64,000 nt of DNA, taken from the NCBI RefSeq assembly GCF_003790525.1, contig NZ_CP033635.1. One strand, written 5' to 3'. The notes under the pieces were generated by a model. That model was not told the DNA's origin and did not search any database. It saw only the letters and a program-made list of their open reading frames with translations. Below are positions 4,049 to 48,804 of this stretch, piece by piece. Position numbers and translations under genes: made by a program. Positions within the stretch are counted from its first letter, which is position 1. Every line of letters starts with the position of its first letter. The DNA comes from Escherichia coli. GTDB lineage: Bacteria; Pseudomonadota; Gammaproteobacteria; Enterobacterales; Enterobacteriaceae.

Positions 4049-4066
4049 CAATTAAGGCTGCAATCA

Positions 4067-6753: not shown

Positions 6754-6756
6754 CAA

Positions 6757-8441: not shown

Positions 8442-8601
8442 AAATCCGAATACTTTTAGCCAACTGACATCCCGTCACTTATTGCAGTTCAACACTTCAG
8501 CTATTTGTAAGGTTGTAATAGCAGGTAGATGCCTGAATCTCTATTCAGGCTTCTACTTCTCCTGATTCTGATTTATCGCCGTGCACCTGATGGAGGAAAA
8601 A

Positions 8602-9882: not shown

Positions 9883-9989
9883 GGGGGATCTTAAGCAATC
9901 AGAAGCCAATGACTACGCATTTTTATAAGCCGGATCATGAAGTTAGACGGCAATTAAGTAAAACTAACGTTTAAGGTGAAAAGTGAAAT

Positions 9990-11642: not shown

Positions 11643-11651
11643 GGAAAATGA

Positions 11652-12254
11652 ATGGAAGCGCGAATTTCAACTGAACGGCATGTGCAGCGCCAGCAGAAAT
11701 TGAAGGAACAGGTCGATACGCGCGTCGCGGCGGCGATAGAGAAAAAAGGGATTTTGATTGTTTTCACCGGCAATGGCAAAGGGAAATCCACTGCCGCGTT
11801 TGGTACTGTGACGCGCGCGGTGGGTCATGGCAAAACGGTGGGGGTTGCGCAGTACATCAAGGGGCAATGGGACAACGGCGAATACAACCTTCTCCAGCCG
11901 CTGGGGGTTGAGTTTCATATTATGGGAACCGGTTTTACCTGGGAGACACAGAACCGGCAAGCGGATATCGACGCGGCGAAAGAGGTCTGGTCGGAAAGCA
12001 AACGGATGCTGGCTGACAAGCGTTACGACTTAGTGGTGCTTGATGAGCTGACCTATATGCTGGCTTACCATTATCTGGATACCGAAGAAGTGATCGCTTC
12101 TCTGCAAAACCGCCCGGCACAACAAAGTGTCATTGTCACCGGACGCGGTTGCCACAGTCAGATATTAAAAATGGCGGATACGGTCAGCGAAATCCGCCCC
12201 GTCAAACATGCTTTTGATAACGGCATTCAGGCCCAGCCGGGTATCGACTGGTAA
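11652..12254 (+). CDS. corrinoid adenosyltransferase paralog (BtuR/CobA family)
   Basis: 200-aa translation closely colinear with E. coli BtuR, including the P-loop-like block IVFTGNGKGKSTAAFG. Confidence 0.85.
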   Translation: MEARISTERHVQRQQKLKEQVDTRVAAAIEKKGILIVFTGNGKGKSTAAFGTVTRAVGHGKTVGVAQYIKGQWDNGEYNLLQPLGVEFHIMGTGFTWETQNRQADIDAAKEVWSESKRMLADKRYDLVVLDELTYMLAYHYLDTEEVIASLQNRPAQQSVIVTGRGCHSQILKMADTVSEIRPVKHAFDNGIQAQPGIDW

Positions 12255-12287
12255 TAACTGCGCCTGGCATCCCGCCAGGCGCAGGTT

Positions 12288-13193
12288 TTACATCTCCTGC
12301 GGTACGACCGATTTCGCCAGCAACCATTCACGAAATTGCTGCAAGTGCGGTGAGTCAGACTTCTCTTCCTGCCACGTCATAATAAAACGATTACCGGTAC
12401 GAATAGGCACATCACAGGGAATCACCATATCGCCACTATCCAAATCATGTTGAATAGCGAACCGTGGTAACAGCGCCACGCCGAGATTAGAGCGCACGGC
12501 GGCAATCAGCATTGAAAGCAAATCGAAACGTGGTCCGTTATTGACCAGCGGACTGCTAACGCCAGATAAAGCAAACCACTCTTCCCAGCCAGTAATACGG
12601 GTGCTTTGATGCAGAAGTGGTAACTCAGTAAGCAGTTCTGCCACTGACAGTTTTTGATCGGACATTGCAAGCAAACTGCCGCTGCATACCGGCAAAATCT
12701 CCTCATCAAAGAGATATTCTACTTCCGCCCAGGGCGCGCAAAAATTTTCGCGCATAATGACAGCATCGTACTCCCGATTAAGAAAATCGCCGTTATTAGC
12801 TAAAGAATGAATATTAACAATAATATCGGGATGTAACTTTGTGAATTCATGTAAATTTGGGATTAACCAGTGGGTACTAAACGTAGGATTCACGGCAAGT
12901 TCAATAACCTGAACCGTAGGCTGCCAGGTCATAATGGTATTGGTATCGCGTTCCAGCTTATTTAATGTTTCTTTTACTATCCCCAGGTAATACTTCCCTG
13001 CATCATTAAGAAAAATGCGTTTTTTAGAGTGTGAAAATAACGGAGTATGTAAAAATTCCTCCAGCGCACTTACTTGTCTGAATACTGCACTTTGGGTTAA
13101 CGCTAACTCCTCTGCCGCTCTGGTATAACTTTCATGACGTGCGACGACCTCAAAAGTCACCAGCAGTTCCGTTTTAGGTATTTTTCCTCGCAT
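12288..13193 (-). CDS. LysR-family transcriptional regulator
   Basis: 301-aa ORF with an N-terminal helix-turn-helix (TRAAEELALTQSAVFRQVSALEE) and a LysR substrate-binding domain. Convergent with the upstream operon. Confidence 0.85.
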   Translation of the reverse strand: MRGKIPKTELLVTFEVVARHESYTRAAEELALTQSAVFRQVSALEEFLHTPLFSHSKKRIFLNDAGKYYLGIVKETLNKLERDTNTIMTWQPTVQVIELAVNPTFSTHWLIPNLHEFTKLHPDIIVNIHSLANNGDFLNREYDAVIMRENFCAPWAEVEYLFDEEILPVCSGSLLAMSDQKLSVAELLTELPLLHQSTRITGWEEWFALSGVSSPLVNNGPRFDLLSMLIAAVRSNLGVALLPRFAIQHDLDSGDMVIPCDVPIRTGNRFIMTWQEEKSDSPHLQQFREWLLAKSVVPQEM

Positions 13194-13770
13194 AATGCCT
13201 TCCCTTAAAAATAGTTGAAACTATCAAAAAACCATTACTTATTGCTAAGTAATGGCAACCAAAGCAGCAATCAATATTTTATAAAAATCATGTTCGATAT
13301 TTATAACCTGGTAAGCCTGGCGTGACAATTGTCTTAATCAGATAATAATAATCCGAAAAGCACAGCACCTTTCGAATTATCAGGAATTACATTAAGTGAA
13401 AATTATTAAATTGATATCATTTATCATATCTGTGGATATTATGATAAACAATCAACATAGATTTTATTTTTGATTTATAGCATATCCCTCTAAGAATTTT
13501 TGCGATGCTTCAATATCCGGGGTAAAGACCCGATCCTGACTGACAAATGGCACGACTTGACGATAAGCGGTGAACATCGCTTTTGTTGATTTACTTAACG
13601 CTACGGTCAAACGCTGGGAAGCCAGTGCATCAGGTAACGATTCGAAATTCGCCGTCGTTCTTATTCGTGGCTTGCGGTCGGTCGCGGCAATCCACAGTGG
13701 CTGTGGTCATGCAGTCAAGCCTGCAGTCAGATTCCGACCGTGGTTAACGTTTAAGGCATAAAAAAGGCCA

Positions 13771-13858
13771 TCATATGATGGCCAACCATGTCGAAACCGA
13801 CAGCCCTTCGCCATTCCTGTAGAGGGAAGCGGCGAGGGCTATTTCTTATTACAGATAT
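13771..13858 (-). ncRNA. sdhX: sucD 3'-UTR small RNA (SdhX/RybD-type) ending in an intrinsic terminator
   Basis: Region immediately after the sucD stop on the minus strand ends in the perfect palindrome GGCCATCATATGATGGCC followed by a T-run. Identity as SdhX rests on position and recollection; 5' end approximate. Confidence 0.45.
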
Positions 13859-14728
13859 TTATTTCAGAACAGTTTTCAGTGCTTCACCGATATCCGCCAG
13901 GCTGCGAACGGTTTTCACGCCTGCGGCTTCCAGAGCAGCAAATTTCTCATCCGCAGTCCCTTTCCCACCGGCAATGATGGCACCCGCGTGGCCCATACGT
14001 TTGCCTTTCGGCGCAGTCACACCAGCGATGTAACCCACAACAGGCTTGGTAACGTGCTCTTTGATGTACGCAGCCGCTTCTTCTTCAGCGCTACCGCCGA
14101 TCTCACCGATCATCACGATCGCTTCGGTCTGCGGATCTTTTTCGAACATTTCGAGGATGTCGATAAAGTTAGAGCCAGGGATCGGGTCGCCGCCGATACC
14201 AACACAGGTCGACTGACCGAAACCGTAATCCGTGGTCTGTTTAACCGCTTCATAGGTCAGTGTACCGGAACGGGAAACGATACCCACTTTACCCGGTTTG
14301 TGAATGTGACCAGGCTGGATACCGATTTTGCATTCACCCGGAGTGATAACGCCCGGGCAGTTCGGGCCGATCATGCGAACGCCCGCTTCATCCAGTTTCA
14401 CCTTCACGGTCAGCATATCCAGCGTCGGGATGCCTTCAGTGATGGTGATAATCAGTTTGATGCCTGCATCAATAGCTTCCAGAATGGAGTCTTTGCAGAA
14501 CGGTGCTGGTACGTAGATAACAGAAGCGGTAGCGCCAGTAGCAGCAACAGCTTCACGCACGGTGTTGAACACCGGCAGGCCGAGGTGGGTGGTGCCGCCT
14601 TTACCTGGGGTTACGCCGCCAACCATTTTAGTGCCGTATGCAATAGCCTGTTCTGAGTGGAAAGTCCCCTGGCTACCGGTAAAGCCCTGGCAGATAACCT
14701 TGGTGTTTTTATCAATTAAAATGGACAT
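13859..14728 (-). CDS. sucD: succinyl-CoA synthetase alpha subunit
   Basis: 289-aa translation recognised as SucD. Confidence 0.97.
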
Positions 14729-15894
14729 TATTTCCCCTCCACTGCGGCAACAACCTGCTGAGCTGCATCCGTCAGACCTTTTGCTGCAATAATATTCAGG
14801 CCGCTGTCAGCCAGTTTCTTCGCGCCGAGTTCGGCGTTGTTACCTTCCAGACGTACCACGACCGGTACGTTAACACCCACTTCCGCTACCGCGCCGATGA
14901 TACCGTCAGCGATCAGGTCGCAACGAACGATACCGCCGAAGATGTTAACCAGAACGGCTTTCACTTTGTCGTCAGAGAGGATGATTTTGAACGCTTCGGT
15001 TACGCGCTCTTTGGTTGCGCCGCCGCCAACGTCCAGGAAGTTAGCTGGTTCGCCGCCGTGCAGTTTAACGATGTCCATGGTGCCCATCGCCAGGCCTGCG
15101 CCGTTAACCATACAACCGATGTTACCGTCCAGCGCAACGTAGTTCAGTTCCCACTGTGCAGCCTGTGCTTCACGCGGATCTTCCTGCGACTGGTCACGCA
15201 TTTCGCGCAGATCAGGCTGGCGGAACAGTGCGTTGCCATCAGCGCCCAGTTTGCCGTCGAGGCAAATCAGATCGCCCTGTTTGGTGATGACCAGCGGGTT
15301 GATTTCGATCAGCGCCAGGTCGCGCTCCAGGAAAATGGTCGCCAGGCCCATGAAGATTTTGGTGAACTGCTGAACCAGTTTACCTTCCAGACCCAGTTTG
15401 AACGCCAGCTCGCGTCCCTGATACGGCATCGGGCCAGTCAGCGGATCAAGCGCAACTTTGTGGATCAGGTGCGGAGTTTCTTCCGCCACTTTTTCGATTT
15501 CCACGCCGCCTTCGGTGGAGGCCATAAAGACCACGCGACGTGAACTACGGTCTACAACGGCACCGAGATACAGCTCTTTAGCGATATCGGTCGCTGCTTC
15601 AACCAGAATCTGGTTAACCGGTTGGCCATTGGCATCTGTTTGATACGTTACCAGACGCTTGCCCAGCCAGTTTTCTGCAAAAGCACGGATGTCTTCTTTG
15701 CTGTTTACCACTTTCACACCGCCCGCTTTACCGCGGCCACCAGCGTGAACCTGACATTTCACTACCCACGGACCGGCACCGATTTTTGAAGCGGCTTCTT
15801 CTGCTTCGCGCGGAGTAGTACAGGCATAACCCACCGGTGCTGGTAAGCCATAGCGGGCAAAAAGTTGTTTTGCCTGATATTCATGTAAGTTCAT
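14728..15894 (-). CDS. sucC: succinyl-CoA synthetase beta subunit
   Basis: 388-aa translation recognised as SucC; stop overlaps the sucD start. Confidence 0.97.
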
Positions 15895-35289: not shown

Positions 35290-35320
35290 GCCATTTTTAT
35301 ACTTTTTTTACACCCCGCCC
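35290..35320 (+). promoter_or_regulatory. KdpE-binding site of the kdpFABC promoter
   Basis: CATTTTTATACTTTTTTTACACCCC about 75-100 bp upstream of kdpF, recognised as the T-rich KdpE operator. Confidence 0.6.
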
Positions 35321-35394
35321 GCAGATTTTTGCGAAATCTTTGCAGCCAGAATTCTACCCTTCCGATATCACTTTTAGGCCACTGGAGGTGCACT

Positions 35395-35484
35395 GTGAGT
35401 GCAGGCGTGATAGCCGGCGTGTTGCTGGTGTTTTTATTACTGGGTTATCTGGTTTATGCCCTGATCAATGCGGAGGCGTTCTGA
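35395..35484 (+). CDS. kdpF: potassium-transporting ATPase subunit F
   Basis: GTG-initiated 29-codon ORF ([28 protein letters not shown]); its stop overlaps the kdpA ATG. Confidence 0.85.
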
Positions 35485-37157
35485 TGGCTGCGCAAGGGTT
35501 CTTACTGATTGCCACGTTTTTACTGGTGTTAATGGTGCTGGCACGTCCTTTAGGCAGCGGGCTGGCGCGGCTGATTAATGATATTCCTCTTCCTGGCACG
35601 ACGGGCGTTGAACGCGTACTCTTTAGCGCGCTTGGCGTCTCTGACCGCGAGATGAACTGGAAGCAGTATCTCTCTGCCATTCTCGGCCTGAACATGCTGG
35701 GGCTGGCGGTGCTGTTTTTTATGTTGCTCGGTCAGCACTATCTGCCGCTTAATCCACAGCAGTTGCCAGGGCTGTCATGGGATCTGGCGCTGAATACCGC
35801 CGTCAGCTTTGTCACCAATACCAACTGGCAATCTTATAGCGGTGAAACCACGTTGAGCTATTTCAGCCAGATGGCGGGCTTAACGGTGCAAAACTTTCTT
35901 TCTGCCGCCAGCGGGATTGCGGTGATTTTTGCCTTCATCCGTGCATTTACCCGCCAGAGCATGAGCACACTCGGGAATGCCTGGGTCGATCTGCTACGCA
36001 TCACGTTATGGGTGCTAGTCCCTGTGGCGTTGTTGATCGCACTGTTTTTTATTCAACAAGGTGCGCTGCAAAACTTTCTGCCCTATCAGGCGGTGAATAC
36101 CGTTGAAGGAGCGAAACAGCTGTTACCAATGGGTCCGGTGGCTTCTCAGGAAGCGATCAAGATGCTCGGCACTAACGGTGGTGGCTTCTTTAATGCCAAC
36201 TCGTCGCATCCATTTGAAAACCCAACCACACTGACCAACTTCGTGCAGATGCTGGCGATCTTCTTGATCCCAACAGCGCTGTGCTTTGCCTTTGGTGAAG
36301 TGGCGGGCGATCGCCGCCAGGGGCGCATGTTGCTGTGGGCGATGTCAGTGATTTTTGTCATCTGCGTAGGCGTAGTGATGTGGGCAGAAGTTCAGGGTAA
36401 TCCTCATCTGCTGGCGCTCGGCGCGGACAGCAGCATCAATATGGAAGGTAAAGAGAGCCGTTTCGGCGTGCTGGTCAGTAGCCTGTTTGCGGTCGTGACT
36501 ACGGCGGCTTCCTGCGGCGCGGTGATTGCGATGCATGATTCGTTTACCGCTCTTGGTGGCATGGTGCCGATGTGGTTGATGCAAATTGGTGAAGTGGTAT
36601 TCGGCGGCGTCGGTTCCGGCCTTTACGGCATGATGCTGTTTGTCCTGCTGGCGGTGTTTATTGCCGGGCTGATGATTGGTCGTACACCGGAATATCTGGG
36701 TAAAAAAATCGACGTACGCGAGATGAAACTGACTGCACTGGCGATTCTGGTCACCCCGACGCTGGTGCTGATGGGCGCGGCTCTGGCAATGATGACCGAC
36801 GCCGGACGTAGCGCCATGCTCAACCCTGGCCCGCATGGTTTTAGCGAAGTGCTGTACGCCGTGTCGTCCGCCGCTAACAACAACGGCAGCGCCTTTGCCG
36901 GATTAAGCGCCAACTCTCCGTTCTGGAACTGTTTACTGGCGTTCTGCATGTTTGTCGGTCGCTTCGGGGTGATTATCCCGGTGATGGCGATTGCCGGTTC
37001 GCTGGTGAGTAAAAAGAGCCAGCCCGCCAGCTCCGGTACACTGCCTACGCACGGCCCGCTGTTTGTTGGCCTGTTAATCGGCACCGTGTTGCTGGTTGGC
37101 GCACTGACCTTTATCCCTGCCCTGGCGCTTGGTCCGGTGGCGGAATATCTCTCCTGA
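35484..37157 (+). CDS. kdpA: potassium-transporting ATPase K+-binding subunit A
   Basis: Start set at [14 protein letters not shown], giving 557 aa. Confidence 0.95.
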
Positions 37158-37179
37158 TGATATTGAGTGAGCACTGAAT

Positions 37180-39228
37180 ATGAGTCGTAAACAACTGGCG
37201 CTATTCGAACCAACACTTGTCGTTCAGGCGCTGAAAGAAGCGGTGAAAAAATTAAACCCGCAGGCGCAATGGCGCAATCCGGTGATGTTTATCGTCTGGA
37301 TCGGCAGTCTGCTGACCACCTTTATTAGCATCGCAATGGCAAGCGGCGCGATGCCTGGCAATGCGCTGTTTAGCGCGGCAATTAGCGCATGGCTGTGGGT
37401 CACCGTACTGTTCGCTAATTTCGCCGAGGCGCTGGCTGAAGGCCGCAGTAAAGCGCAGGCCAACAGTCTGAAAGGTGTAAAAAAAACCGCCTTTGCCCGC
37501 AAGCTGCGTGAGCCGAAATATGGCGCTGCGGCGGACAAAGTACCTGCCGATCAACTGCGTAAAGGCGATATCGTACTGGTAGAAGCTGGCGATATTATCC
37601 CCTGCGATGGTGAAGTTATTGAAGGGGGGGCATCGGTCGATGAAAGCGCCATCACCGGGGAATCGGCACCGGTGATCCGTGAATCCGGCGGCGATTTTGC
37701 CTCCGTCACTGGCGGTACGCGTATTCTTTCTGACTGGCTGGTGATTGAGTGCAGCGTTAACCCCGGCGAGACATTTCTGGATCGGATGATCGCGATGGTG
37801 GAAGGCGCGCAGCGACGCAAAACGCCAAACGAGATTGCCCTGACCATTCTCCTGATTGCCCTGACTATCGTCTTTTTACTGGCAACCGCCACGCTGTGGC
37901 CGTTTTCCGCGTGGGGCGGTAATGCAGTCAGCGTAACGGTACTGGTGGCGCTGCTGGTCTGTCTGATCCCAACGACCATTGGCGGTCTGTTGTCAGCGAT
38001 CGGCGTCGCCGGGATGAGTCGGATGCTGGGCGCGAATGTGATTGCCACCAGCGGACGTGCAGTTGAAGCGGCAGGTGACGTTGACGTTCTGCTACTGGAT
38101 AAAACCGGCACCATCACACTTGGTAACCGTCAGGCGTCGGAGTTTATCCCTGCGCAGGGCGTGGATGAAAAAACGCTGGCTGACGCCGCACAACTGGCTT
38201 CGCTGGCTGATGAAACGCCGGAAGGCCGCAGTATTGTGATCCTCGCCAAGCAGCGTTTTAACCTGCGTGAGCGCGATGTGCAGTCGCTTCACGCCACCTT
38301 TGTACCGTTTACTGCGCAAAGCCGGATGAGCGGGATCAACATCGACAACCGCATGATCCGTAAAGGTTCTGTCGATGCCATTCGCCGCCATGTTGAGGCT
38401 AACGGCGGTCACTTCCCTGCCGACGTCGATCAAAAAGTCGATCAGGTTGCGCGTCAGGGAGCCACGCCGCTGGTGGTGGTGGAAGGTTCTCGTGTGCTGG
38501 GCGTTATTGCGCTGAAAGATATCGTCAAAGGCGGTATTAAAGAGCGCTTCGCCCAACTGCGCAAAATGGGCATTAAAACGGTGATGATTACCGGTGATAA
38601 CCGTCTGACTGCCGCCGCGATAGCTGCGGAAGCGGGTGTCGATGATTTTCTCGCCGAAGCGACACCGGAGGCCAAGCTGGCATTGATTCGTCAGTATCAG
38701 GCGGAAGGCCGTTTGGTGGCGATGACCGGCGACGGCACCAACGATGCTCCGGCGCTGGCGCAGGCAGATGTCGCGGTGGCGATGAACTCTGGTACTCAGG
38801 CGGCGAAAGAAGCGGGCAATATGGTGGATCTCGACTCCAACCCGACCAAGTTGATCGAGGTGGTACATATTGGCAAACAGATGCTGATGACCCGTGGCTC
38901 GCTGACCACCTTCAGCATTGCCAACGATGTGGCGAAATACTTCGCCATTATTCCGGCGGCGTTCGCGGCAACGTATCCGCAGTTAAATGCGCTGAACATC
39001 ATGCGCCTGCATTCGCCCGACTCCGCCATTCTCAGTGCGGTGATTTTCAACGCCTTGATTATCGTCTTTTTGATTCCCCTGGCGTTAAAAGGCGCGAGTT
39101 ATAAACCGCTTACCGCTTCTGCCATGTTGCGCCGTAACTTATGGATTTACGGTCTGGGTGGGCTGCTGGTGCCGTTTATTGGTATCAAAGTCATTGATTT
39201 ACTGCTAACCGTTTGCGGTCTGGTGTGA
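37180..39228 (+). CDS. kdpB: potassium-transporting P-type ATPase catalytic subunit B
   Basis: 682-aa translation with P-type ATPase motifs ([18 protein letters not shown]). Confidence 0.97.
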
Positions 39229-39236
39229 GGTTTACC

Positions 39237-39809
39237 ATGAGTGGATTACGTCCGGCATTATCGACATTTCTCTTTCTGTTATTGATTACTGGCGGCGTTT
39301 ACCCGCTGCTGACCACCGCGCTGGGGCAATGGTGGTTTCCCTGGCAGGCCAACGGTTCGTTGATTCGTGAAGGTGATACGGTGCGCGGTTCGGCATTGAT
39401 CGGGCAGAATTTTACTGGCAACGGCTATTTTCATGGTCGCCCGTCGGCAACGGCAGAAATGCCCTATAATCCACAGGCTTCTGGCGGGAGCAATCTGGCG
39501 GTCAGTAACCCTGAGCTGGATAAACTAATAGCCGCACGCGTTGCTGCATTACGGGCCGCTAACCCGGATGCCAGCGCGAGCGTTCCGGTTGAGCTGGTGA
39601 CGGCATCGGCAAGCGGGCTGGACAATAATATCACCCCGCAAGCGGCGGCATGGCAGATCCCACGCGTGGCGAAAGCGCGTAATCTCAGCGTTGAACAGCT
39701 CACGCAACTGATCGCAAAATACAGCCAACAACCGCTGGTGAACTATATCGGCCAGCCGGTCGTCAACATTGTCGAACTCAATCTGGCGCTGGATAAGCTT
39801 GATGAATAA
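39237..39809 (+). CDS. kdpC: potassium-transporting ATPase subunit C
   Basis: Start set at [17 protein letters not shown], giving 190 aa. Confidence 0.93.
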
Positions 39810-42486
39810 CGAACCCTTACGTCCCGACCCCGATCGTCTGCTGGAACAAACTGCCGCGCCGCATCGGGGGAAGCTGAAAGTTTTCTTCGGTGCCTGCGCA
39901 GGCGTCGGGAAGACCTGGGCGATGCTGGCAGAAGCCCAGCGACTGCGGGCGCAAGGGCTGGATATTGTGGTTGGCGTGGTAGAAACCCACGGGCGGAAAG
40001 ATACCGCCGCAATGCTGGAAGGGCTGGCTGTTCTGCCGTTAAAACGCCAGGCGTACCGTGGGCGGCACATCAGCGAGTTTGATCTCGATGCCGCCCTCGC
40101 CCGCCGTCCGGCACTGATCTTAATGGACGAACTGGCGCACAGTAATGCGCCAGGTTCTCGTCATCCCAAACGCTGGCAGGATATTGAAGAACTGCTGGAA
40201 GCTGGCATTGATGTTTTCACTACCGTCAACGTTCAGCATCTGGAAAGTCTGAATGATGTGGTCAGCGGCGTCACCGGAATTCAGGTACGGGAAACCGTGC
40301 CCGATCCTTTTTTTGATGCCGCCGACGACGTAGTACTGGTGGACTTGCCCCCGGACGATCTGCGCCAGCGACTGAAAGAAGGCAAAGTCTATATTGCCGG
40401 GCAGGCGGAGCGCGCCATTGAACATTTTTTTCGTAAAGGTAATCTGATCGCCCTGCGCGAACTGGCACTGCGCCGTACTGCCGATCGCGTTGATGAGCAA
40501 ATGCGCGCCTGGCGGGGGCATCCTGGCGAAGAGAAAGTCTGGCACACGCGCGACGCGATCCTTTTATGCATCGGGCATAACACCGGCAGCGAAAAACTGG
40601 TCCGCGCGGCGGCGCGGCTGGCGTCACGGCTGGGAAGCGTCTGGCACGCGGTGTATGTTGAAACCCCTGCCCTGCACCGCTTACCGGAGAAAAAACGTCG
40701 GGCAATTCTCAGCGCCTTACGTCTGGCGCAGGAGCTGGGCGCAGAGACGGCAACACTTTCTGATCCAGCGGAAGAGAAAGCGGTAGTGCGTTATGCCCGT
40801 GAACATAATCTCGGCAAGATTATTCTCGGTCGCCCAGCCTCGCGCCGCTGGTGGCGTCGGGAAACGTTTGCTGACCGACTGGCGCGAATCGCCCCCGATC
40901 TCGATCAGGTGCTGGTCGCGCTTGATGAACCACCCGCCCGCACGATAAACAACGCGCTGGATAGCCGCTCTTTTAAAGACAAGTGGCGGGTACAGATTCA
41001 GGGATGCGTGGTTGCCGCCGCGTTATGCGCCGTTATCACCTTAATTGCCATGCAGTGGCTGATGGCGTTTGATGCCGCCAACCTGGTGATGCTGTATCTG
41101 CTTGGCGTGGTGATGGTGGCGCTATTTTATGGACGCTGGCCTTCAGTGGTTGCCACCGTCATTAATGTGGTGAGTTTCGATCTCTTTTTTATCGCCCCAC
41201 GCGGCACGCTCGCCGTCTCTGATGTGCAATATCTACTGACCTTCGCGGTGATGTTAACCGTCGGGCTGGTGATCGGGAACCTTACTGCGGGCGTGCGTTA
41301 TCAGGCGCGGGTAGCCCGTTACCGCGAGCAACGCACACGGCACTTATATGAAATGTCGAAAGCTCTGGCTGTGGGCCGCAGTCCGCAGGACATCGCCGCC
41401 ACCAGCGAACAATTTATTGCCTCCACGTTTCATGCCCGCAGTCAGGTGCTGTTACCCGATGACAACGGTAAATTGCAGCCGTTAACACATCCGCAAGGAA
41501 TGACGCCGTGGGACGATGCCATCGCGCAGTGGAGTTTTGATAAAGGCCTGCCTGCGGGCGCGGGCACCGACACGTTACCCGGTGTACCGTACCAGATTTT
41601 GCCGCTAAAAAGCGGCGAGAAAACCTACGGACTGGTGGTGGTGGAACCGGGGAATCTGCGTCAATTGATGATCCCGGAACAGCAGCGCCTGCTGGAGACG
41701 TTTACGCTGTTAGTCGCCAATGCCCTTGAGCGGCTGACGCTGACCGCCAGCGAAGAACAGGCGCGGATGGCAAGCGAACGAGAACAGATCCGCAACGCCC
41801 TGCTGGCGGCACTTTCGCATGATTTACGCACGCCGCTTACGGTGCTGTTCGGTCAGGCAGAAATCTTAACGCTCGATCTGGCAAGCGAAGGATCGCCCCA
41901 CGCCCGCCAGGCCAGCGAGATTCGCCAGCATGTGCTGAACACGACCCGACTGGTGAATAATCTACTGGATATGGCGCGAATTCAGTCCGGCGGCTTTAAT
42001 TTGAAGAAAGAGTGGTTAACGCTGGAAGAAGTGGTCGGCAGCGCGCTGCAAATGCTGGAACCGGGTTTATCGTCGCCCATCAATCTTTCTCTGCCAGAAC
42101 CGCTGACCTTAATCCACGTTGACGGGCCACTGTTTGAACGGGTGCTGATTAATCTGCTGGAGAACGCGGTGAAATACGCGGGTGCGCAGGCCGAAATTGG
42201 TATCGATGCCCACGTTGAGGGCGAAAATCTACAACTGGATGTCTGGGATAATGGCCCCGGTCTTCCACCAGGCCAGGAGCAGACGATTTTCGATAAGTTT
42301 GCTCGTGGAAATAAAGAGTCGGCGGTGCCGGGGGTAGGGCTTGGGCTGGCAATTTGTCGGGCGATTGTGGATGTACACGGCGGCACCATTACCGCGTTCA
42401 ACCGACCGGAAGGTGGTGCCTGTTTTCGTGTTACACTTCCCCAGCAAACTGCCCCTGAACTTGAAGAATTTCATGAGGATATGTGA
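39802..42486 (+). CDS. kdpD: sensor histidine kinase KdpD
   Basis: Start set at [14 protein letters not shown], giving 894 aa; overlaps the kdpC end. Confidence 0.95.
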
Positions 42487-43160
42487 CAAACGTTCTGATT
42501 GTTGAAGATGAACAGGCTATTCGTCGCTTTCTGCGCACGGCGCTGGAGGGCGACGGGATGCGCGTCTTTGAGGCCGAAACGCTGCAACGCGGCTTGCTGG
42601 AAGCGGCAACCCGTAAGCCAGATTTGATTATTCTCGATCTCGGCCTGCCCGATGGTGATGGGATTGAGTTTATCCGCGACCTGCGCCAGTGGAGCGCGGT
42701 GCCGGTGATTGTGCTTTCCGCACGCAGCGAAGAGAGCGACAAAATCGCCGCACTGGATGCCGGAGCGGATGATTACCTGAGTAAGCCGTTTGGCATTGGC
42801 GAATTGCAGGCCCGTCTGCGCGTCGCTTTACGCCGCCACTCCGCCACCACCGCGCCCGATCCGCTGGTGAAATTTTCCGATGTGACCGTCGATTTAGCCG
42901 CCCGCGTGATTCACCGGGGTGAGGAAGAGGTGCATCTCACGCCGATTGAATTCCGCCTGCTGGCCGTGCTGCTCAACAACGCCGGAAAAGTGCTCACCCA
43001 GCGCCAGTTACTCAATCAGGTGTGGGGACCAAACGCGGTCGAACACAGTCATTATTTGCGTATTTATATGGGGCATCTGCGACAAAAACTGGAGCAAGAT
43101 CCCGCCCGCCCCCGCCATTTCATTACTGAAACCGGTATTGGGTATCGGTTTATGCTTTGA
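42483..43160 (+). CDS. kdpE: response regulator KdpE (OmpR family)
   Basis: 225-aa translation; GTG start overlapping the kdpD stop. Confidence 0.93.
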   Translation: MTNVLIVEDEQAIRRFLRTALEGDGMRVFEAETLQRGLLEAATRKPDLIILDLGLPDGDGIEFIRDLRQWSAVPVIVLSARSEESDKIAALDAGADDYLSKPFGIGELQARLRVALRRHSATTAPDPLVKFSDVTVDLAARVIHRGEEEVHLTPIEFRLLAVLLNNAGKVLTQRQLLNQVWGPNAVEHSHYLRIYMGHLRQKLEQDPARPRHFITETGIGYRFML

Positions 43161-43197
43161 ATATTAATTTTAATACATCCTGCCTTTTATTAATTAA

Positions 43198-43226
43198 AGC
43201 CGTAATAATAAATACGGCTTTTTATC
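43198..43226 (+). terminator. intrinsic terminator downstream of kdpE
   Basis: Hairpin AGCCGTA-ATAATAAA-TACGGCT followed by TTTTTAT. Confidence 0.6.
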
Positions 43227-43393
43227 TTAAACAACACACAAAAATAACAATTCAATATTTTATATTACTGAGTAAAAAGTTCATCATTAAATAAATTAAG
43301 ATTGATCATTTTTTATTGATCACCTTCACAGTTCAACAGTATTTCCTGGATAGAATACCTTCACCTTCATTCACATCAGGAAAGGTAAATTAA

Positions 43394-43498
43394 ATGGAAA
43401 ATAACAGCCGCACTATGCCCCATATAAGGCGGACAACTCATATTATGAAGTTTGCTCATCGCAATAGCTTCGACTTTCACTTCTTCAATGCCCGTTAG
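43394..43498 (+). CDS. speFL: speF leader peptide (ornithine-sensing arrest peptide)
   Basis: 34-codon ORF MENNSRTMPHIRRTTHIMKFAHRNSFDFHFFNAR about 260 bp upstream of speF. Confidence 0.8.
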   Translation: MENNSRTMPHIRRTTHIMKFAHRNSFDFHFFNAR

Positions 43499-43755
43499 TC
43501 TACCGACTAAGGGCACTTCAGCGTACAGGTCTTCCTGACTCTCTGTATTACAGGCATATGCCTGTATTCCGCAGTGCTCATTCTCTGTTAACCCTTGTAT
43601 TATCAGCCACCGGACTGATAAGGGTTTCTGCATTCTGAAAAAAGCAAACTTCTGATTAATTTATCAGCGGGGTAACTTTGCTTTTTTTCCGGCACGATCG
43701 ATTTCTCATTCGAGAAATTGAGGACCTGCTATTACCAAAAATAAAGAGTTGGAAA

Positions 43756-45954
43756 ATGTCAAAATTAAAAATTGCGGTTAGTGATTCTTGCCCGGACTGT
43801 TTTACCACGCAGCGAGAATGTATCTATATTAATGAAAACAGTAATATCGATGTGGCGGCAATAGTTTTATCGCTCAACGATGTTACACGCGGAAAACTCG
43901 ATGAAATCGATGCCACGGGTTATGGCATCCCGGTATTTATTGCTACTGAAAATCAAGAACGTGTACCCGCAGAGTATTTGCCCCGTATTTCGGGTGTCTT
44001 TGAGAATTGCGAATCGCGACGAGAATTTTATGGTCGTCAGTTAGAAACCGCAGCCAGCCATTATGAAACTCAACTGCGCCCGCCCTTCTTCCGCGCACTG
44101 GTCGATTATGTCAATCAGGGTAACAGCGCGTTTAATTGCCCCGGTCATCAGGGCGGCGAATTTTTCCGTCGCCATCCGGCGGGGAATCAGTTTGTGGAAT
44201 ACTTTGGTGAGGCGCTGTTCCGTGCTGACTTGTGCAACGCGGATGTGGCAATGGGCGATCTGCTGATTCACGAAGGCGCGCCATGCATTGCACAGCAACA
44301 TGCGGCAAAAGTGTTTAATGCCGATAAAACATACTTCGTTCTAAATGGCACTTCATCTTCTAACAAAGTGGTTTTAAACGCCCTGTTAACACCGGGGGAT
44401 CTGGTGCTGTTTGACCGTAATAACCATAAATCTAATCACCACGGAGCGTTGCTACAGGCTGGCGCAACACCAGTTTATCTGGAAACCGCACGCAACCCGT
44501 ATGGCTTTATCGGTGGTATTGATGCCCACTGCTTCGAAGAAAATTACCTGCGCGAACTGATTACAGAAGTCGCACCGCAGCGGGCAAAAGAGGCGCGTCC
44601 TTTCCGCCTCGCCGTTATTCAGCTAGGCACTTACGACGGTACGATTTATAACGCCCGTCAGGTGGTGGATAAAATTGGTCATCTGTGTGACTACATCCTC
44701 TTTGACTCCGCATGGGTCGGCTATGAGCAGTTTATCCCGATGATGGCGGACTGTTCACCACTGTTGCTGGATCTTAATGAGAACGATCCGGGTATTCTGG
44801 TTACGCAATCTGTGCATAAACAGCAGGCTGGTTTTTCCCAGACTTCACAAATCCATAAAAAAGACAGCCATATCAAAGGGCAACAGCGTTATGTACCGCA
44901 CAAACGCATGAACAACGCCTTTATGATGCATGCCTCCACCAGCCCGTTCTATCCGCTGTTTGCCGCACTGGATATCAACGCCAAAATGCATGAAGGCGTC
45001 AGCGGTCGTAATATGTGGATGGATTGTGTGGTAAATGGCATTAATGCCCGCAAACTGATCCTCGATAACTGTCAGCATATTCGTCCATTCGTACCTGAAC
45101 TGGTGGATGGTAAACCCTGGCAGTCGTATGAAACAGCGCAAATTGCGGTTGATCTGCGCTTCTTCCAGTTTGTACCAGGTGAGCACTGGCATTCTTTTGA
45201 AGGCTATGCAGAGAATCAATACTTTGTCGATCCGTGCAAACTGTTGCTGACAACCCCAGGTATTGATGCACGTAACGGCGAATATGAAGCGTTCGGTGTA
45301 CCCGCGACGATTCTTGCTAACTTCCTGCGCGAAAATGGCGTAGTGCCGGAAAAATGCGATCTTAACTCCATCCTCTTTCTGCTGACTCCGGCAGAAGATA
45401 TGGCCAAACTTCAGCAACTTGCTGCTCTGCTGGTACGCTTCGAAAAACTGCTTGAGTCCGACGCGCCATTATCAGAAGTACTGCCTTCCATCTACAAACA
45501 GCATGAAGAGCGCTACACCGGTTATACCCTGCGTCAGTTGTGTCAGGAAATGCATGATTTGTATGCCCGTCACAACGTGAAACAACTGCAAAAAGAGATG
45601 TTTCGTAAGGAACACTTCCCACGTGTCAGCATGAATCCACAAGAAGCCAACTACGCCTATTTACGCGGTGAAGTGGAGCTGGTTCGTCTGCCGGATGCAG
45701 AAGGCCGTATCGCTGCAGAAGGTGCGCTTCCTTATCCTCCGGGAGTGCTGTGTGTTGTTCCGGGTGAAATCTGGGGTGGTGCTGTTCTGCGTTACTTCAG
45801 CGCTCTGGAAGAAGGGATCAACCTGCTGCCAGGTTTTGCACCGGAGCTTCAGGGTGTCTATATCGAAGAACATGATGGTCGTAAGCAAGTTTGGTGCTAT
45901 GTCATCAAGCCTCGTGGTGCGCAAAGCACCCTGCTGAAAGGGGAAAAATTATGA
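43756..45954 (+). CDS. speF: inducible ornithine decarboxylase
   Basis: Start set at MSKLKIAVSDSCPD, giving 732 aa. Confidence 0.96.
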   Translation: MSKLKIAVSDSCPDCFTTQRECIYINENSNIDVAAIVLSLNDVTRGKLDEIDATGYGIPVFIATENQERVPAEYLPRISGVFENCESRREFYGRQLETAASHYETQLRPPFFRALVDYVNQGNSAFNCPGHQGGEFFRRHPAGNQFVEYFGEALFRADLCNADVAMGDLLIHEGAPCIAQQHAAKVFNADKTYFVLNGTSSSNKVVLNALLTPGDLVLFDRNNHKSNHHGALLQAGATPVYLETARNPYGFIGGIDAHCFEENYLRELITEVAPQRAKEARPFRLAVIQLGTYDGTIYNARQVVDKIGHLCDYILFDSAWVGYEQFIPMMADCSPLLLDLNENDPGILVTQSVHKQQAGFSQTSQIHKKDSHIKGQQRYVPHKRMNNAFMMHASTSPFYPLFAALDINAKMHEGVSGRNMWMDCVVNGINARKLILDNCQHIRPFVPELVDGKPWQSYETAQIAVDLRFFQFVPGEHWHSFEGYAENQYFVDPCKLLLTTPGIDARNGEYEAFGVPATILANFLRENGVVPEKCDLNSILFLLTPAEDMAKLQQLAALLVRFEKLLESDAPLSEVLPSIYKQHEERYTGYTLRQLCQEMHDLYARHNVKQLQKEMFRKEHFPRVSMNPQEANYAYLRGEVELVRLPDAEGRIAAEGALPYPPGVLCVVPGEIWGGAVLRYFSALEEGINLLPGFAPELQGVYIEEHDGRKQVWCYVIKPRGAQSTLLKGEKL

Positions 45955-47270
45955 GTCAGGCTAAATCGAACAAGATGGGCGTCGTTCAGTTAACCATACT
46001 GACGATGGTCAACATGATGGGCTCCGGTATCATCATGCTGCCGACAAAGCTTGCCGAAGTTGGGACAATCTCAATTATCTCCTGGCTGGTGACAGCCGTA
46101 GGCTCAATGGCACTGGCGTGGGCATTCGCAAAATGCGGTATGTTCAGCCGTAAGGCAGGTGGTATGGGCGGTTATGCGGAGTATGCTTTCGGTAAATCCG
46201 GTAACTTTATGGCGAACTACACCTACGGTGTCTCGCTGCTGATTGCTAACGTCGCGATTGCTATTTCGGCGGTTGGTTACGGCACCGAACTGCTCGGCGC
46301 GAGTTTGTCGCCAGTGCAGATTGGTCTTGCGACCATCGGGGTGCTGTGGATTTGTACCGTGGCTAACTTCGGTGGTGCGCGCATTACCGGGCAAATCAGT
46401 AGCATTACTGTGTGGGGGGTAATCATTCCGGTCGTCGGTCTGTGCATTATCGGCTGGTTCTGGTTTAGCCCGACGCTGTACGCTAACTCATGGAACCCTC
46501 ATCATGTACCGTTCTTTAGCGCTGTAGGTTCCTCCATCGCCATGACGTTGTGGGCTTTCCTCGGTCTGGAGTCTGCCTGTGCCAACGCCGAAGTAGTGGA
46601 AAACCCGGAACGTAACGTGCCAATAGCAGTCCTTGGCGGTACGTTAGGTGCGGCAGTGATTTATATCGTCTCCACCAACGTGATTGCCGGGATTGTGCCC
46701 AATATGGAGCTGGCAAATTCAACGGCACCATTTGGCCTGGCCTTCGCACAGATGTTCACACCAGAAGTGGGTAAAGTCATTATGGCGCTGATGGTGATGT
46801 CCTGCTGCGGTTCACTGCTTGGCTGGCAGTTCACCATTGCCCAGGTGTTTAAATCTTCATCTGATGAAGGCTACTTCCCTAAAATTTTCTCCCGTGTAAC
46901 CAAAGTGGATGCACCGGTTCAGGGAATGTTGATCATTGTGATTATTCAGAGTGGATTGGCACTGATGACCATTAGCCCGTCACTGAACAGCCAGTTCAAC
47001 GTGCTGGTTAACCTGGCCGTGGTGACCAATATCATCCCGTATATTCTGTCGATGGCAGCATTAGTTATTATTCAGCAGGTCGCCAATGTGCCACCGTCAA
47101 AAGCGAAAGTAGCAAACTTTGTTGCCTTTGTTGGTGCGATGTACAGTTTCTATGCGCTGTACTCATCCGGGGAAGAAGCCATGCTGTACGGTTCCATCGT
47201 GACCTTCCTTGGTTGGACACTGTATGGTCTGGTATCTCCACGCTTTGAACTGAAAAATAAACACGGTTAA
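45951..47270 (+). CDS. potE: putrescine:ornithine antiporter
   Basis: Start set at MSQAKSNKMGVVQL, giving 439 aa; ATGA overlap with the speF stop. Confidence 0.96.
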   Translation: MSQAKSNKMGVVQLTILTMVNMMGSGIIMLPTKLAEVGTISIISWLVTAVGSMALAWAFAKCGMFSRKAGGMGGYAEYAFGKSGNFMANYTYGVSLLIANVAIAISAVGYGTELLGASLSPVQIGLATIGVLWICTVANFGGARITGQISSITVWGVIIPVVGLCIIGWFWFSPTLYANSWNPHHVPFFSAVGSSIAMTLWAFLGLESACANAEVVENPERNVPIAVLGGTLGAAVIYIVSTNVIAGIVPNMELANSTAPFGLAFAQMFTPEVGKVIMALMVMSCCGSLLGWQFTIAQVFKSSSDEGYFPKIFSRVTKVDAPVQGMLIIVIIQSGLALMTISPSLNSQFNVLVNLAVVTNIIPYILSMAALVIIQQVANVPPSKAKVANFVAFVGAMYSFYALYSSGEEAMLYGSIVTFLGWTLYGLVSPRFELKNKHG

Positions 47271-47286
47271 AAAAAGCGAAATAAAA

Positions 47287-47320
47287 AAGGGCGATTGAAT
47301 GATCGCCCTTTCTGTTTGTT
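47287..47320 (+). terminator. intrinsic terminator downstream of potE
   Basis: Hairpin GGGCGAT-TGAATG-ATCGCCC followed by TTTCTGTTTGTT. Confidence 0.65.
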
Positions 47321-47353
47321 GACAAAGAGTTCGTTATTTATGCCGCATCCGGC

Positions 47354-47495
47354 AGGTGTAGGGTCCAAACGCGGTCGAACACAGCAACTATTTGCGTAAT
47401 TATATGAGGCATTTGCGACAAAAACTGGAACAGGATCTCGTCCGCCCCGCCATTTCATTACTGAAACCGGTATTGGGTATCGGTTTATGCTTTGA
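47354..47495 (+). repeat. degenerate direct repeat of the kdpE 3' end (about 142 bp), non-coding fragment
   Basis: Aligns base-for-base with kdpE 43014-43160 at roughly 90% identity with one 3-bp gap; the last ~50 nt, including the TGA, are identical. Confidence 0.85.
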
Positions 47496-47618
47496 AAAAA
47501 GTGGCAATGTATGGATAAAGTCATTTTTTATTCAAATATAAGGAACTTAATATTTAAAAAATGTCCCATACAATGCCTCATCATAAATGACACCGTAGCA
47601 CACAAGGAGCAAGTAGCG

Positions 47619-48269
47619 ATGCGTGAAGTGAGTCAGTTAGTAAATACTGAAGATTCAGCCTGGCCAATAATCCAGAATTGGTTAAAAGAAGCCACAAACC
47701 ATGCCGAACTCTTACCGGTTAATAAAGATTTAGCCGAAACCGCACTTTATCAATTACAGGTTACAACAAAATCACCGATGGGTGCGCTTGTCTATGGCTC
47801 CGGAGGTCTGCTGATTGATAACGGTTGGTTACGCATAGCAGGCTCTGGTCACCCCCGGTTACCACGAGATCCAGCAAGTTGGACACAACGCCCTGAATTC
47901 GCAAGCGTGCGGGCTTTACCCATCGCCGATGATGTCGCAGGGGGAATTTTTGCTCTTAATGGTGGCGATCTTGGGGAAGATACTGGCTGCGTTTATTATT
48001 TTGCGCCAGATACGCTGAATTGGGAAAGTCTGGAGGTTGGATATTCTGAGTTTCTTCAGTGGGCATTATCCGGTGATTTAGATACCTTCTATGAAAATGT
48101 ACGCTGGCCGCAATGGCAAGAAGACGTAATAAAATTATCGGCAACGGAAGCCTTCACTTTCTACCCTTTCTTATGGGTACAATGTGAAGAAGCAAGAACA
48201 AGAAAAGTTATTTCGCTTACTGAACTCTGGGAAATGCAGTATCAAATGAAAGAAACAATCACGCAATAA
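47619..48269 (+). CDS. uncharacterised protein, YbfG-like (possibly DUF2625)
   Basis: 216-aa ORF from the ATG preceded by AGGAG (MREVSQLVNTEDSAWP...). Family name recalled, not verified. Confidence 0.6.
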   Translation: MREVSQLVNTEDSAWPIIQNWLKEATNHAELLPVNKDLAETALYQLQVTTKSPMGALVYGSGGLLIDNGWLRIAGSGHPRLPRDPASWTQRPEFASVRALPIADDVAGGIFALNGGDLGEDTGCVYYFAPDTLNWESLEVGYSEFLQWALSGDLDTFYENVRWPQWQEDVIKLSATEAFTFYPFLWVQCEEARTRKVISLTELWEMQYQMKETITQ

Positions 48270-48309
48270 GACATGTTCAGGTCCGGGTTTCATTCCCGGA
48301 CTCGCTATT

Positions 48310-48804
48310 TTAATGTGTGTTTATCGCTTTCAATTCTTGCTGGCAATTTTCTGACTGACAGCGTCGCAACTCAATAATCCCTACATGCATCATCGAGCCA
48401 AAAAATCCGCTTTCGCTGACATAATCCTCATTAACTAGCGGTCGAGTGCCGGGCTTACCCTGGCAAATCCCCATAAAAAATGAGGTGTAGCATTGCCATT
48501 CAGGATTTAAACCGGTCTTTTCTTGTGCTGACATATCATGAAGATAAGTAAGTTCTTTTTCGTTCCCGCCTGACAACTGCCAGCGGCGGGTATTATCAGG
48601 TAAGTTATCGCCACGGCAATTTGTCTTACACCGGGAAGGCGCAATATTTACCGTAATGCTCCCCGTTAATCCTCTGGTTTTATCTTTAGGGGTCAGTAAC
48701 CAGTCACCAGCTAATGATGATTGTTCAGGTTGGGCGCATGCTGTCAGCAGTAGTGTGGCGGTAATTAATGCCACTCTGACGACCAGACTCCTTTTGGTCT
48801 TCAT
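48310..48804 (-). CDS. ybfP: lipoprotein YbfP
   Basis: Start set at MKTKRSLVVRVALITATLLLTAC (lipoprotein signal with lipobox LTAC), giving 164 aa. Confidence 0.85.
   Translation of the reverse strand: MKTKRSLVVRVALITATLLLTACAQPEQSSLAGDWLLTPKDKTRGLTGSITVNIAPSRCKTNCRGDNLPDNTRRWQLSGGNEKELTYLHDMSAQEKTGLNPEWQCYTSFFMGICQGKPGTRPLVNEDYVSESGFFGSMMHVGIIELRRCQSENCQQELKAINTH

Follow-up and report, generated by a model that had tools for sequence, protein, structure and literature searches.

Gene overlaps along a 64,000-nucleotide stretch of Escherichia coli DNA (contig NZ_CP033635.1; hereafter, the window) are best read as the ordinary junctions of compact E. coli operons, and the metabolic island at one end of it as the known methylaspartate cluster carrying a putative two-subunit citramalate lyase, CmlAB; we give this joint reading a probability of roughly 0.8. 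The overlap phenomenon is ordinary and already known: short overlaps are textbook features of operons in bacteria and put the prior odds of a physical complex at only about 30%, and the present analysis adds nothing on translational coupling. What would change is the naming of two genes, annotated by RefSeq as ‘acyclic terpene utilization AtuA family protein’ and ‘DUF4387 domain-containing protein’, which would become CmlA and CmlB in about one-fifth of complete E. coli genomes.

Overlapping junctions in the window

Gene coordinates were transferred exactly from the RefSeq annotation of a record that is 100% identical to the window (E. coli strain XDL), and each start/stop junction was read straight off the window sequence. 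Overlaps occur in 14 of the 48 same-strand adjacent pairs of the whole window. A preliminary description had named eight of them, all of which are present in the sequence, and had placed them within 35395–47270, a span that holds only the kdp and speF–potE junctions; those of sdh and the island lie elsewhere in the window. Its motif statements are correct for seven junctions and wrong for kdpF/kdpA.

In the kdp operon (plus strand), kdpF (35395–35484; 29 aa, GTG start) ends in a TGA stop that has 1 nt in common with the ATG of kdpA (35484–37157), so that the junction at 35482–35486 reads cTGATGg, a 1-nt overlap and not the ATGA previously described. kdpB (37180–39228) starts 22 nt past kdpA with no overlap, and kdpC (39237–39809) 8 nt past kdpB. 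The TAA stop of kdpC lies within the sensor kinase gene kdpD (39802–42486), giving an 8-nt overlap (ATGAATAA, 39802–39809), and kdpD overlaps the response regulator gene kdpE (42483–43160; GTG start) by 4 nt in GTGA (42483–42486). Farther along the same strand, the genes for the inducible ornithine decarboxylase speF (43756–45954) and the antiporter potE (45951–47270) share ATGA (45951–45954; 4-nt overlap); the leader peptide ORF speFL (43394–43498, plus strand) lies upstream of speF and outside any overlap. A consensus scan of the kdp and speF/potE junctions returned no terminator-like site. The kdp–potE stretch is present in at least 5033 of 5426 complete E. coli genomes.

On the minus strand, sdhC–sdhD–sdhA (20954–23465) contains a 7-nt overlap between sdhC and sdhD and a 1-nt overlap between sdhD and sdhA (TGATG at 22720), and sucC–sucD (13859–15894) contains a 1-nt overlap at 14728. 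The earlier list, although its entries exist, was incomplete: it lacked sdhC/sdhD and sucC/sucD, together with pxpB/pxpC (7 nt), pxpC/pxpA (11 nt), ybgA/phrB (4 nt) and uof/fur (8 nt). Searched in full against Rfam at gathering thresholds, the window gave no match, and nothing significant was obtained from Pfam or PADLOC for two low-GC hypothetical ORFs (217–1664) or for the ORF at 48310–48804.

Start codons at the overlaps

The start/stop motif alone is not significant. Among all stop trinucleotides in the window, 33% carry a start codon at −4 and 8.6% at −1, and one at either position also accompanies 10 of the 48 real stops that no downstream gene overlaps. What makes the junctions non-random is the conserved proteins that start exactly at them. 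NCBIfam, Pfam or PDB alignments of full length start at residues 1–6 of KdpA (TIGR00680, residues 1–557 against profile 1–561), KdpD (NF007793, 1–894 against 1–895), KdpE (NF007820, 1–225 against 1–225), PotE (equivalog model, from residue 3), SdhA, GlmL, Mal and CmlB. The possibility that the annotated starts are wrong, with the true starts downstream and the overlaps mere annotation artefacts, would gain from the nearby alternative starts that only three genes offer, namely an in-frame Met at codon 9 of potE, GTG/ATG at codons 15–18 of kdpA and TTG/GTG at codons 3 and 12 of sdhA. It is nevertheless highly improbable, given that the full-length equivalog models align from residue 1–6 of every downstream protein, that the MAAL_N domain of Mal is complete (1–159 against profile 1–159), that DUF4387 begins at residue 6 of CmlB and that the crystallized CmlA and CmlB chains align from residue 1 of the window proteins. 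Moving to the next in-frame start would delete 25–74 residues in seven of the ten genes (kdpD, kdpE, sdhD, sucD, glmL, mal and cmlB). On the basis of these full-length alignments and distant alternative starts, we rejected annotation artefacts as the source of the overlaps; the overlapping start codons are very probably the genuine starts of the downstream proteins.

Shine–Dalgarno-like motifs within the upstream gene are strong (top 1.5–3% of the coding-region background) at kdpF>kdpA (GGAGG within the 3′ end of kdpF, −9.5 kcal/mol), speF>potE (AGGGGA, −7.8 kcal/mol), sdhD>sdhA, sucC>sucD and cmlA>cmlB (AGGAG, −8.3 kcal/mol), moderate at kdpD>kdpE and glmS>glmL, and weak at kdpC>kdpD (−3.1 kcal/mol), glmE>mal and uof>fur. 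The energy needed to open the ribosome-binding region was higher for genes with overlapping starts (9.6 versus 7.8 kcal/mol; P = 0.04; n = 14 versus 42), a difference on which we do not rely, as it is slight and the upstream coding sequence, being richer in GC, confounds it.

Coupling and complexes

At each junction, a genuine, conserved downstream gene has its start codon at, or slightly ahead of, the stop codon of its upstream neighbour. A ribosome ending the upstream gene would thus sit at the next start and may reinitiate there (termination–reinitiation). Alternatively, the terminating ribosome may unwind the local mRNA, allowing a new ribosome to bind the Shine–Dalgarno-like motif in the upstream 3′ end. 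Either route would tie translation of the downstream gene to that of the upstream gene. Coupled, co-directional overlapping pairs and termination–reinitiation have been described by Huber et al. in 2019 (PMC6728339) and 2023 (PMC10666635) and in a review (PMC12548453), and those pairs have in common with the pairs of the window ATGA and TGATG/TAATG junctions, Shine–Dalgarno-like motifs in the upstream gene (of varying strength in the window), location in operons and enrichment in complexes. Overlaps of −4 and −1 are the dominant spacing within E. coli operons, and four of five native overlapping pairs tested in E. coli were strictly coupled, the fifth, bioBF, being initiated de novo (PMC6728339). 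These five include none from the window, and coupling of the window pairs is suggested by analogy with them only.

The preliminary description took the overlaps as a sign of stoichiometric coupling; on this reading, every overlap would reflect selection for a fixed 1:1 subunit stoichiometry and would itself identify partners. E. coli pairs at spacings from −8 to +10 nt show a 4.5-fold enrichment in complexes (PMC10666635), and the window contains genuine complexes at kdpF/A, sdhC/D, sdhD/A, sucC/D, pxpB/C and cmlA/B. However, 30.4% of E. coli pairs at this spacing are subunits of one complex and 69.6% are not (PMC10666635); of the 17 pairs so spaced in the window, about 7 are complex subunits by annotation. 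Products that form no stoichiometric complex are encoded by the overlapping pairs kdpC/kdpD (a pump subunit, then a sensor kinase), kdpD/kdpE, speF/potE, glmE/mal, ybgA/phrB and uof/fur, and mal/cmlA, fumD/cobO and nagA/nagC are likewise close or overlapping without encoding subunits of one enzyme, whereas kdpA and kdpB encode subunits of one pump and yet are separated by 22 nt. The premise that overlapping genes are subunits of one complex fails at pairs such as kdpC/kdpD, speF/potE and glmE/mal, and we regard selection for stoichiometry at every overlap as quite unlikely. The arrangement is enriched in heteromeric complexes without being restricted to them, and an overlap predicts a complex weakly.

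The accessory island and its putative citramalate lyase

The island lies between cydA and sucD, where K-12 has mngR–mngA–mngB, and occurs in 1117–1138 of 5426 complete E. coli genomes (~21%). It is the known accessory methylaspartate-pathway cluster. On the plus strand, glmS (2211–2660), encoding subunit S of glutamate (methylaspartate) mutase (NCBIfam equivalog score of 254 against a cut-off of 110), shares 1 nt (TGATG at 2660) with the mutase accessory gene glmL (2660–4048; NF040745, 511.6 bits against a cut-off of 475, from residue 4). glmE (4067–5512; mutase subunit E; Pfam PF06368, 713 bits) follows 18 nt past glmL and shares 1 nt (TAATG at 5512) with mal (5512–6753; methylaspartate ammonia-lyase; TIGR01502, 543.9 bits against a cut-off of 286, from residue 2). 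The next two genes, 3 nt past mal, are the ORFs that the preliminary description had called unknown: cmlA (6757–8127), for an AtuA-family protein and putative large subunit of citramalate lyase, and cmlB (8124–8441), for a DUF4387 protein and putative small subunit, which overlap by 4 nt in ATGA (8124–8127). A GltP-like dicarboxylate/amino-acid symporter gene, fumD and the adenosyltransferase gene cobO follow on the same strand (8602–12254) at spacings of +160, +107 and +9 nt. fumD (9990–11642) encodes a 550-aa class I fumarase/mesaconase with Fumerase and Fumerase_C domains and is annotated as a class I fumarate hydratase. A LysR-type regulator gene (12288–13193, minus strand) forms the island edge nearest sucD.

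A strong terminator-like hairpin (12258–12284) lies just past these plus-strand genes, and a weak one (8531–8550) accompanies the 160-nt and 107-nt gaps that flank the transporter gene. The consensus scan also matched weak plus-strand hairpins of 5–6 pairs within cmlA (8068–8080) and cmlB (8394–8413), and promoter-like sites were rarer than in shuffled sequence.

The two ORFs are no longer unknown, as both match the chains of PDB entries 9ERQ and 9EVF, deposited as citramalate lyase subunits CmlA (chain A) and CmlB (chain B). CmlA aligns with 9ERQ chain A over its entire length (973 bits, residues 1–456 against 1–456, ~91% identity) and with the AtuA family of Pfam (PF07287, 72 bits); CmlB aligns with chain B (193.5 bits, residues 1–104 against 1–104) and carries DUF4387 (PF14330). 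The lengths of both proteins are the same or nearly the same as those of the crystallized chains. From these matches it follows that the pair encodes a heteromeric enzyme, which, judged by sequence, is very probably the two-subunit citramalate lyase CmlAB. As in 9ERQ/9EVF and CmlAB of Raoultella planticola, a 456-aa AtuA-family subunit is combined with a 105-aa DUF4387 subunit, and the B gene directly follows the A gene. For the R. planticola enzyme, direct cleavage of citramalate into pyruvate and acetate has been reported (bioRxiv 10.64898/2026.01.16.699985). A literature search found no primary paper on CmlAB, only this preprint using the enzyme, and neither CmlA nor CmlB is covered by a model in NCBIfam release 20; the putative function here is taken from the names given by the PDB depositors and from the preprint.

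Gene order and spacing across genomes

cmlB adjoins cmlA on its downstream side in all 79 assessable loci, which span many phyla; mal lies directly upstream of cmlA in 68 of 74 loci, and the full glmS–glmL–glmE–mal order precedes cmlAB in 54 of 63, so that the order glmS–glmL–glmE–mal–cmlA–cmlB recurs across many phyla. Together with the 9ERQ/9EVF matches, this conserved order bears out the earlier proposal that the island genes, including the supposedly unknown pair, form one functional unit. The overlaps that had been offered as the argument for it are weak evidence, as most closely spaced E. coli pairs are not complexes.

Spacing is less uniform than order. cmlA and cmlB overlap in all 24 Enterobacterales loci; outside Enterobacterales, with starts placed by homology, they overlap in 21 of 57 loci and are spaced by 0–25 nt in 32 of 57. 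Being mostly separated there, the genes do not require the overlap to make the enzyme. glmE and mal overlap in all 22 Enterobacterales loci and in 26 of 41 others. These distributions bear on the possibility that overlaps are neutral by-products of compaction and stop-codon drift, with each gene initiated independently and no functional coupling. The motif is cheap, as the frequencies at stop trinucleotides given above indicate, most downstream genes have a Shine–Dalgarno-like motif of their own, spacings differ greatly from phylum to phylum at cmlA/cmlB, mal/cmlA, glmS/glmL and glmL/glmE, and de novo initiation is exemplified by bioBF. Against neutrality stand the strict coupling of the other four tested native pairs (PMC6728339), the fixation of the cmlA/cmlB overlap throughout the Enterobacterales loci and the −4 overlap of glmE/mal in the 26 distant loci, which is far commoner there than any other single spacing. 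We consider neutrality doubtful without being far-fetched, and retain the reading of the overlaps as ordinary compact operon junctions.

Outside Enterobacterales, a conserved protein of ~315 aa (X315) is usually encoded past cmlAB, in 42 of 57 loci by the gene next to cmlB on its downstream side; E. coli lacks it. Its predicted fold comprises a TsaE-like P-loop ATPase domain followed by an AlaX-like domain, and on this model X315 might be an ATP-dependent activase or maturation factor with which enteric bacteria have dispensed. One could combine this with the fixed 4-nt cmlA/cmlB overlap and suppose that co-translational assembly of CmlAB lies behind the overlap in Enterobacterales, the heteromer needing strictly coupled synthesis, and that X315 is a third partner of the lyase elsewhere. 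We consider this combination speculative and unlikely.

Pathway and relation to known clusters

In the proposed route, glutamate would be taken up by the GltP-like symporter and converted to 3-methylaspartate by GlmS/GlmE, with GlmL and CobO supporting the B12 cofactor; Mal would then form mesaconate, FumD would convert it to (S)-citramalate, and CmlAB would cleave the latter to pyruvate and acetate. If the pair is CmlAB, the island would encode the whole route from glutamate to pyruvate and acetate. Kronen & Berg described in 2015 a FumD-containing glutamate-fermentation cluster of pathogenic Enterobacteriaceae (PMC4682846), which has the following genes in common with the island: glmS, glmL, glmE, mal with a DUF1446/AtuA gene on its downstream side, fumD, and genes for a glutamate transporter, a cobalamin adenosyltransferase and a LysR regulator. 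As an accessory cluster, it is also similarly distributed (26.5% of E. coli in that study, 21% of complete genomes here). At that time, neither the function of the DUF1446 gene nor what becomes of citramalate was known (PMC4682846); the pair now bears the name citramalate lyase in PDB entries, and its assignment as CmlAB would close this gap. The clostridial glutamate fermentation operon (mutS–mutL–mutE–mal) represents the same pathway and the same S–L–E–mal order, but has a two-subunit mesaconase where the island has a class I fumarase of a single chain. The putative citramalate lyase of clostridial clusters is CitDEF-like (PMC4682846), an enzyme of the citrate lyase type to which the putative AtuA/DUF4387 lyase of the island is unrelated.

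Overlapping junctions

All same-strand junctions of the window were read directly from the sequence, using a gene map taken from the RefSeq annotation of NZ_CP043033.1 (3458793–3522792), which transfers base for base. Several complete Escherichia coli genomes are 100% identical to positions 35000–48000 (megablast), and no annotated coding sequence contains an internal stop. The accessory methylaspartate-pathway island (glmS-glmL-glmE-mal-cmlA-cmlB, a GltP-like symporter gene, fumD and cobO; 2211–12254, plus strand) is followed by a divergent LysR gene (12288–13193), sucDCBA-sdhBADC on the minus strand, gltA and housekeeping genes, kdpFABCDE (35395–43160), speFL, speF-potE (43756–47270) and a last block with pgm, seqA, fur and the nag genes.

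Neighbouring genes overlap in 14 of the 48 same-strand pairs. All eight overlaps named in a preliminary description are present: kdpF/kdpA (1 nt, cTGATGg), kdpC/kdpD (8 nt, ATGAATAA), kdpD/kdpE (4 nt, GTGA), speF/potE (4 nt, ATGA), sdhD/sdhA and glmS/glmL (1 nt, TGATG in both), glmE/mal (1 nt, TAATG) and cmlA/cmlB (4 nt, ATGA). The observation is therefore real, apart from one misnamed motif (kdpF/kdpA, given as ATGA, was the single error) and an incomplete list, which lacked sdhC/sdhD (7 nt), sucC/sucD (1 nt), pxpB/pxpC (7 nt), pxpC/pxpA (11 nt), ybgA/phrB (4 nt) and uof/fur (8 nt). The span assigned to the overlaps, 35395–47270, fits the kdp and speF-potE junctions; the other named junctions are located elsewhere.

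By itself, the overlap motif is no more than expected by chance: across the window, ATG, GTG or TTG occurs at the −4 position of 33% of stop trinucleotides and at −1 of 8.6%, and such a start codon also accompanies 10 of 48 real stops that have no overlapping downstream gene. What is non-random is that, by alignment, conserved proteins start exactly at the overlaps. KdpA, KdpD, KdpE, PotE, SdhA, GlmL and Mal give full-length NCBIfam equivalog alignments from residue 1–6, MAAL_N aligns over residues 1–159 (profile 1–159), DUF4387 aligns from residue 6, and the crystallized CmlA and CmlB chains align with the window proteins from residue 1 and match them in length exactly or nearly so. Starting at the next in-frame start would remove 25–74 residues from kdpD, kdpE, sdhD, sucD, glmL, mal and cmlB products; close alternatives occur only in potE (Met9), sdhA and kdpA. 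True starts downstream of the overlaps, the finding that would have undone the description, are thus very unlikely.

Strong Shine–Dalgarno-like motifs (top 1.5–3% of the coding-region background) lie within the upstream gene at kdpF>kdpA, speF>potE, sdhD>sdhA, sucC>sucD and cmlA>cmlB; at kdpD>kdpE and glmS>glmL the motif is of moderate strength, and kdpC>kdpD and glmE>mal have a weak one. The opening energy of initiation regions was slightly higher for genes with overlapping starts (9.6 versus 7.8 kcal/mol, p = 0.04), a weak difference, confounded by GC content, that is compatible with dependence on an upstream ribosome.

Overlap and complex membership

Spacings of −4 and −1 nt dominate among co-directional genes. 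In most prokaryotic groups, overlaps involve about 15% of gene pairs, and of five overlapping native pairs from E. coli that were assayed, four showed strict coupling by termination–reinitiation (PMC6728339). Of the 820 E. coli pairs with spacings of −8 to +10 nt, 30.4% encode subunits of heteromeric complexes; at distances above 20 nt the share is 6.8% (PMC10666635). With an overlap, the odds of a complex are therefore approximately 4.5-fold higher but still roughly one in three. The window resembles this genome-wide pattern, with annotated subunits of the same complex in 7 of its 17 pairs at −8 to +10 nt (kdpF/A, kdpB/C, sdhC/D, sdhD/A, sucC/D, pxpB/C and cmlA/B). Close pairs that do not form one complex include kdpC/kdpD, kdpD/kdpE, speF/potE, glmE/mal, mal/cmlA, ybgA/phrB, uof/fur, fumD/cobO and nagA/nagC, yet kdpA and kdpB, which encode subunits of one pump, are separated by 22 nt. 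The 'stoichiometric coupling' that had been read from the overlaps is therefore overstated.

Conserved synteny of the cluster

The claim that the island genes, including the pair then without assigned function (cmlA-cmlB), form one functional unit was a correct conclusion drawn from a weak premise; the strong argument for it is synteny rather than overlap. We annotated 82 non-duplicate cmlA loci by phmmer with the window proteins as queries, placing starts by homology (Enterobacterales, Betaproteobacteria, Riflebacteria, Aminicenantes, Spirochaetes, Lentisphaerae, Clostridia, Desulfobacterales, Planctomycetes and others). Between distant phyla, CmlA homologues are 57–70% identical. cmlB lies immediately 3′ of cmlA in all 79 assessable loci, mal immediately 5′ of the pair in 68 of 74, and the order glmS-glmL-glmE-mal is found upstream in 54 of 63. 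cmlA and cmlB overlap by 4 or 1 nt in 24/24 Enterobacterales loci; in other phyla they overlap in 21 of 57 loci (20 by 4 or 1 nt) and are 0–25 nt apart in 32. Likewise, glmE and mal overlap in 22/22 Enterobacterales loci, with a 4-nt overlap in 26 of 41 others. Adjacency of cmlA and cmlB is thus universal and tight spacing the rule; the precise overlap differs between lineages. Five loci (L035, L066, L068, L080 and L082; Accumulibacter, Shewanella and Desulfospira) carry cmlA-cmlB without adjoining glutamate mutase or methylaspartase genes; other pathways that yield citramalate or mesaconate may therefore use the lyase as well.

Identity of the cmlA–cmlB pair

The 456-aa AtuA-family (Pfam) product of cmlA (6757–8127) matches chain A of PDB 9ERQ/9EVF over residues 1–456 of both (973 bits, approximately 91% identity), and the 105-aa DUF4387 protein encoded by cmlB (8124–8441) matches chain B over residues 1–104 of both (193.5 bits); the depositors named these chains "Citramalate lyase, subunit A (cmlA)" and "subunit B (cmlB)". 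Kronen & Berg described the same enterobacterial cluster in 2015 and characterized FumD as a mesaconase, leaving the DUF1446 gene 3′ of mal without an assigned function and the fate of citramalate open (PMC4682846). According to a 2026 preprint, "Cml (cmlAB) from Raoultella planticola", a gift of the Berg laboratory, converts citramalate directly to pyruvate and acetate, and growth on mesaconate depends on Cml (bioRxiv 10.64898/2026.01.16.699985). Taken together, the PDB matches, this activity and the gap left in 2015 indicate that the pair probably supplies the missing final step of the pathway. Overlaps of this kind, the gene cluster and the lyase itself have all been described already. A literature search found no primary paper on CmlAB, and NCBIfam (release 20) lacks models for both subunits. 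RefSeq still names the products of 6757–8441 'acyclic terpene utilization AtuA family protein' and 'DUF4387 domain-containing protein', and some records label cmlA '3-methylaspartate ammonia-lyase'.

In 42 of 57 non-enterobacterial loci, cmlB is followed, mostly within 0–25 nt, by a conserved gene of approximately 315 aa (for example, L003:11712–12665, L004:11677–12618, L029:9857–10780 and L078:10837–11766, with about 40 other loci) that is absent from the window, E. coli and Enterobacterales. Its product belongs to no Pfam or NCBIfam family, with matches only at the Walker-A level; an AlphaFold model (pLDDT 85.6) resembles a P-loop ATPase domain of the TsaE/YjeE type with an AlaX/tRNA_SAD-like domain after it, and many His, Cys, Asp and Arg residues are invariant. 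One possible role for the protein is that of an accessory factor to CmlAB.

Island distribution and flanking sequences

The 11.2-kb glmS-to-LysR stretch occurs in 1117–1138 of 5426 complete E. coli genomes, always at ≥95% identity, versus at least 5033 for the kdp–potE stretch. In K-12, mngR-mngA-mngB take the place of the glmS-to-LysR stretch between cydA and sucD. The GC content over glm–cml is unremarkable (0.52–0.56), and the flanks are AT-rich. A strong terminator-like hairpin lies 3′ of cobO (12258–12284) and a weak one between cmlB and the transporter gene. The nine genes may be carried on one transcript or on two to three. The gap between the gltP-like gene and fumD is 107 nt in E. coli, versus approximately 1.1–1.3 kb in most other Enterobacterales loci (L007–L021 of the comparative set; Klebsiella, Citrobacter and others). 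Kronen & Berg (PMC4682846; figure 5 legend) list a glutaminase (GlsA) in the enterobacterial clusters that they depict; a GlsA-like gene may fill this gap, and the E. coli cluster appears to be a shortened version.

Two low-GC (0.34–0.39) hypothetical open reading frames (ORFs; 217–1664; 314 and 140 aa) between cydA and glmS, where the island has its far edge, had no significant match in Pfam or PADLOC. A minus-strand terminator-like hairpin (13783–13766) lies in the 665-nt sucD–lysR spacer (13194–13858); in K-12, the SdhX small RNA is annotated immediately after sucD, and Rfam at gathering thresholds gave zero matches over the whole window. A type 1 fimbrial protein pseudogene fragment that lacks the N terminus lies between gltA and abrB (25568–25963). 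The stretch 3′ of potE (47362–48804; GC content approximately 0.44–0.45) may be another small accessory insertion; it holds a frameshifted winged-helix pseudogene fragment, a DUF2625 gene (47619–48269) and, on the minus strand, a 164-aa ORF of unannotated family (48310–48804).
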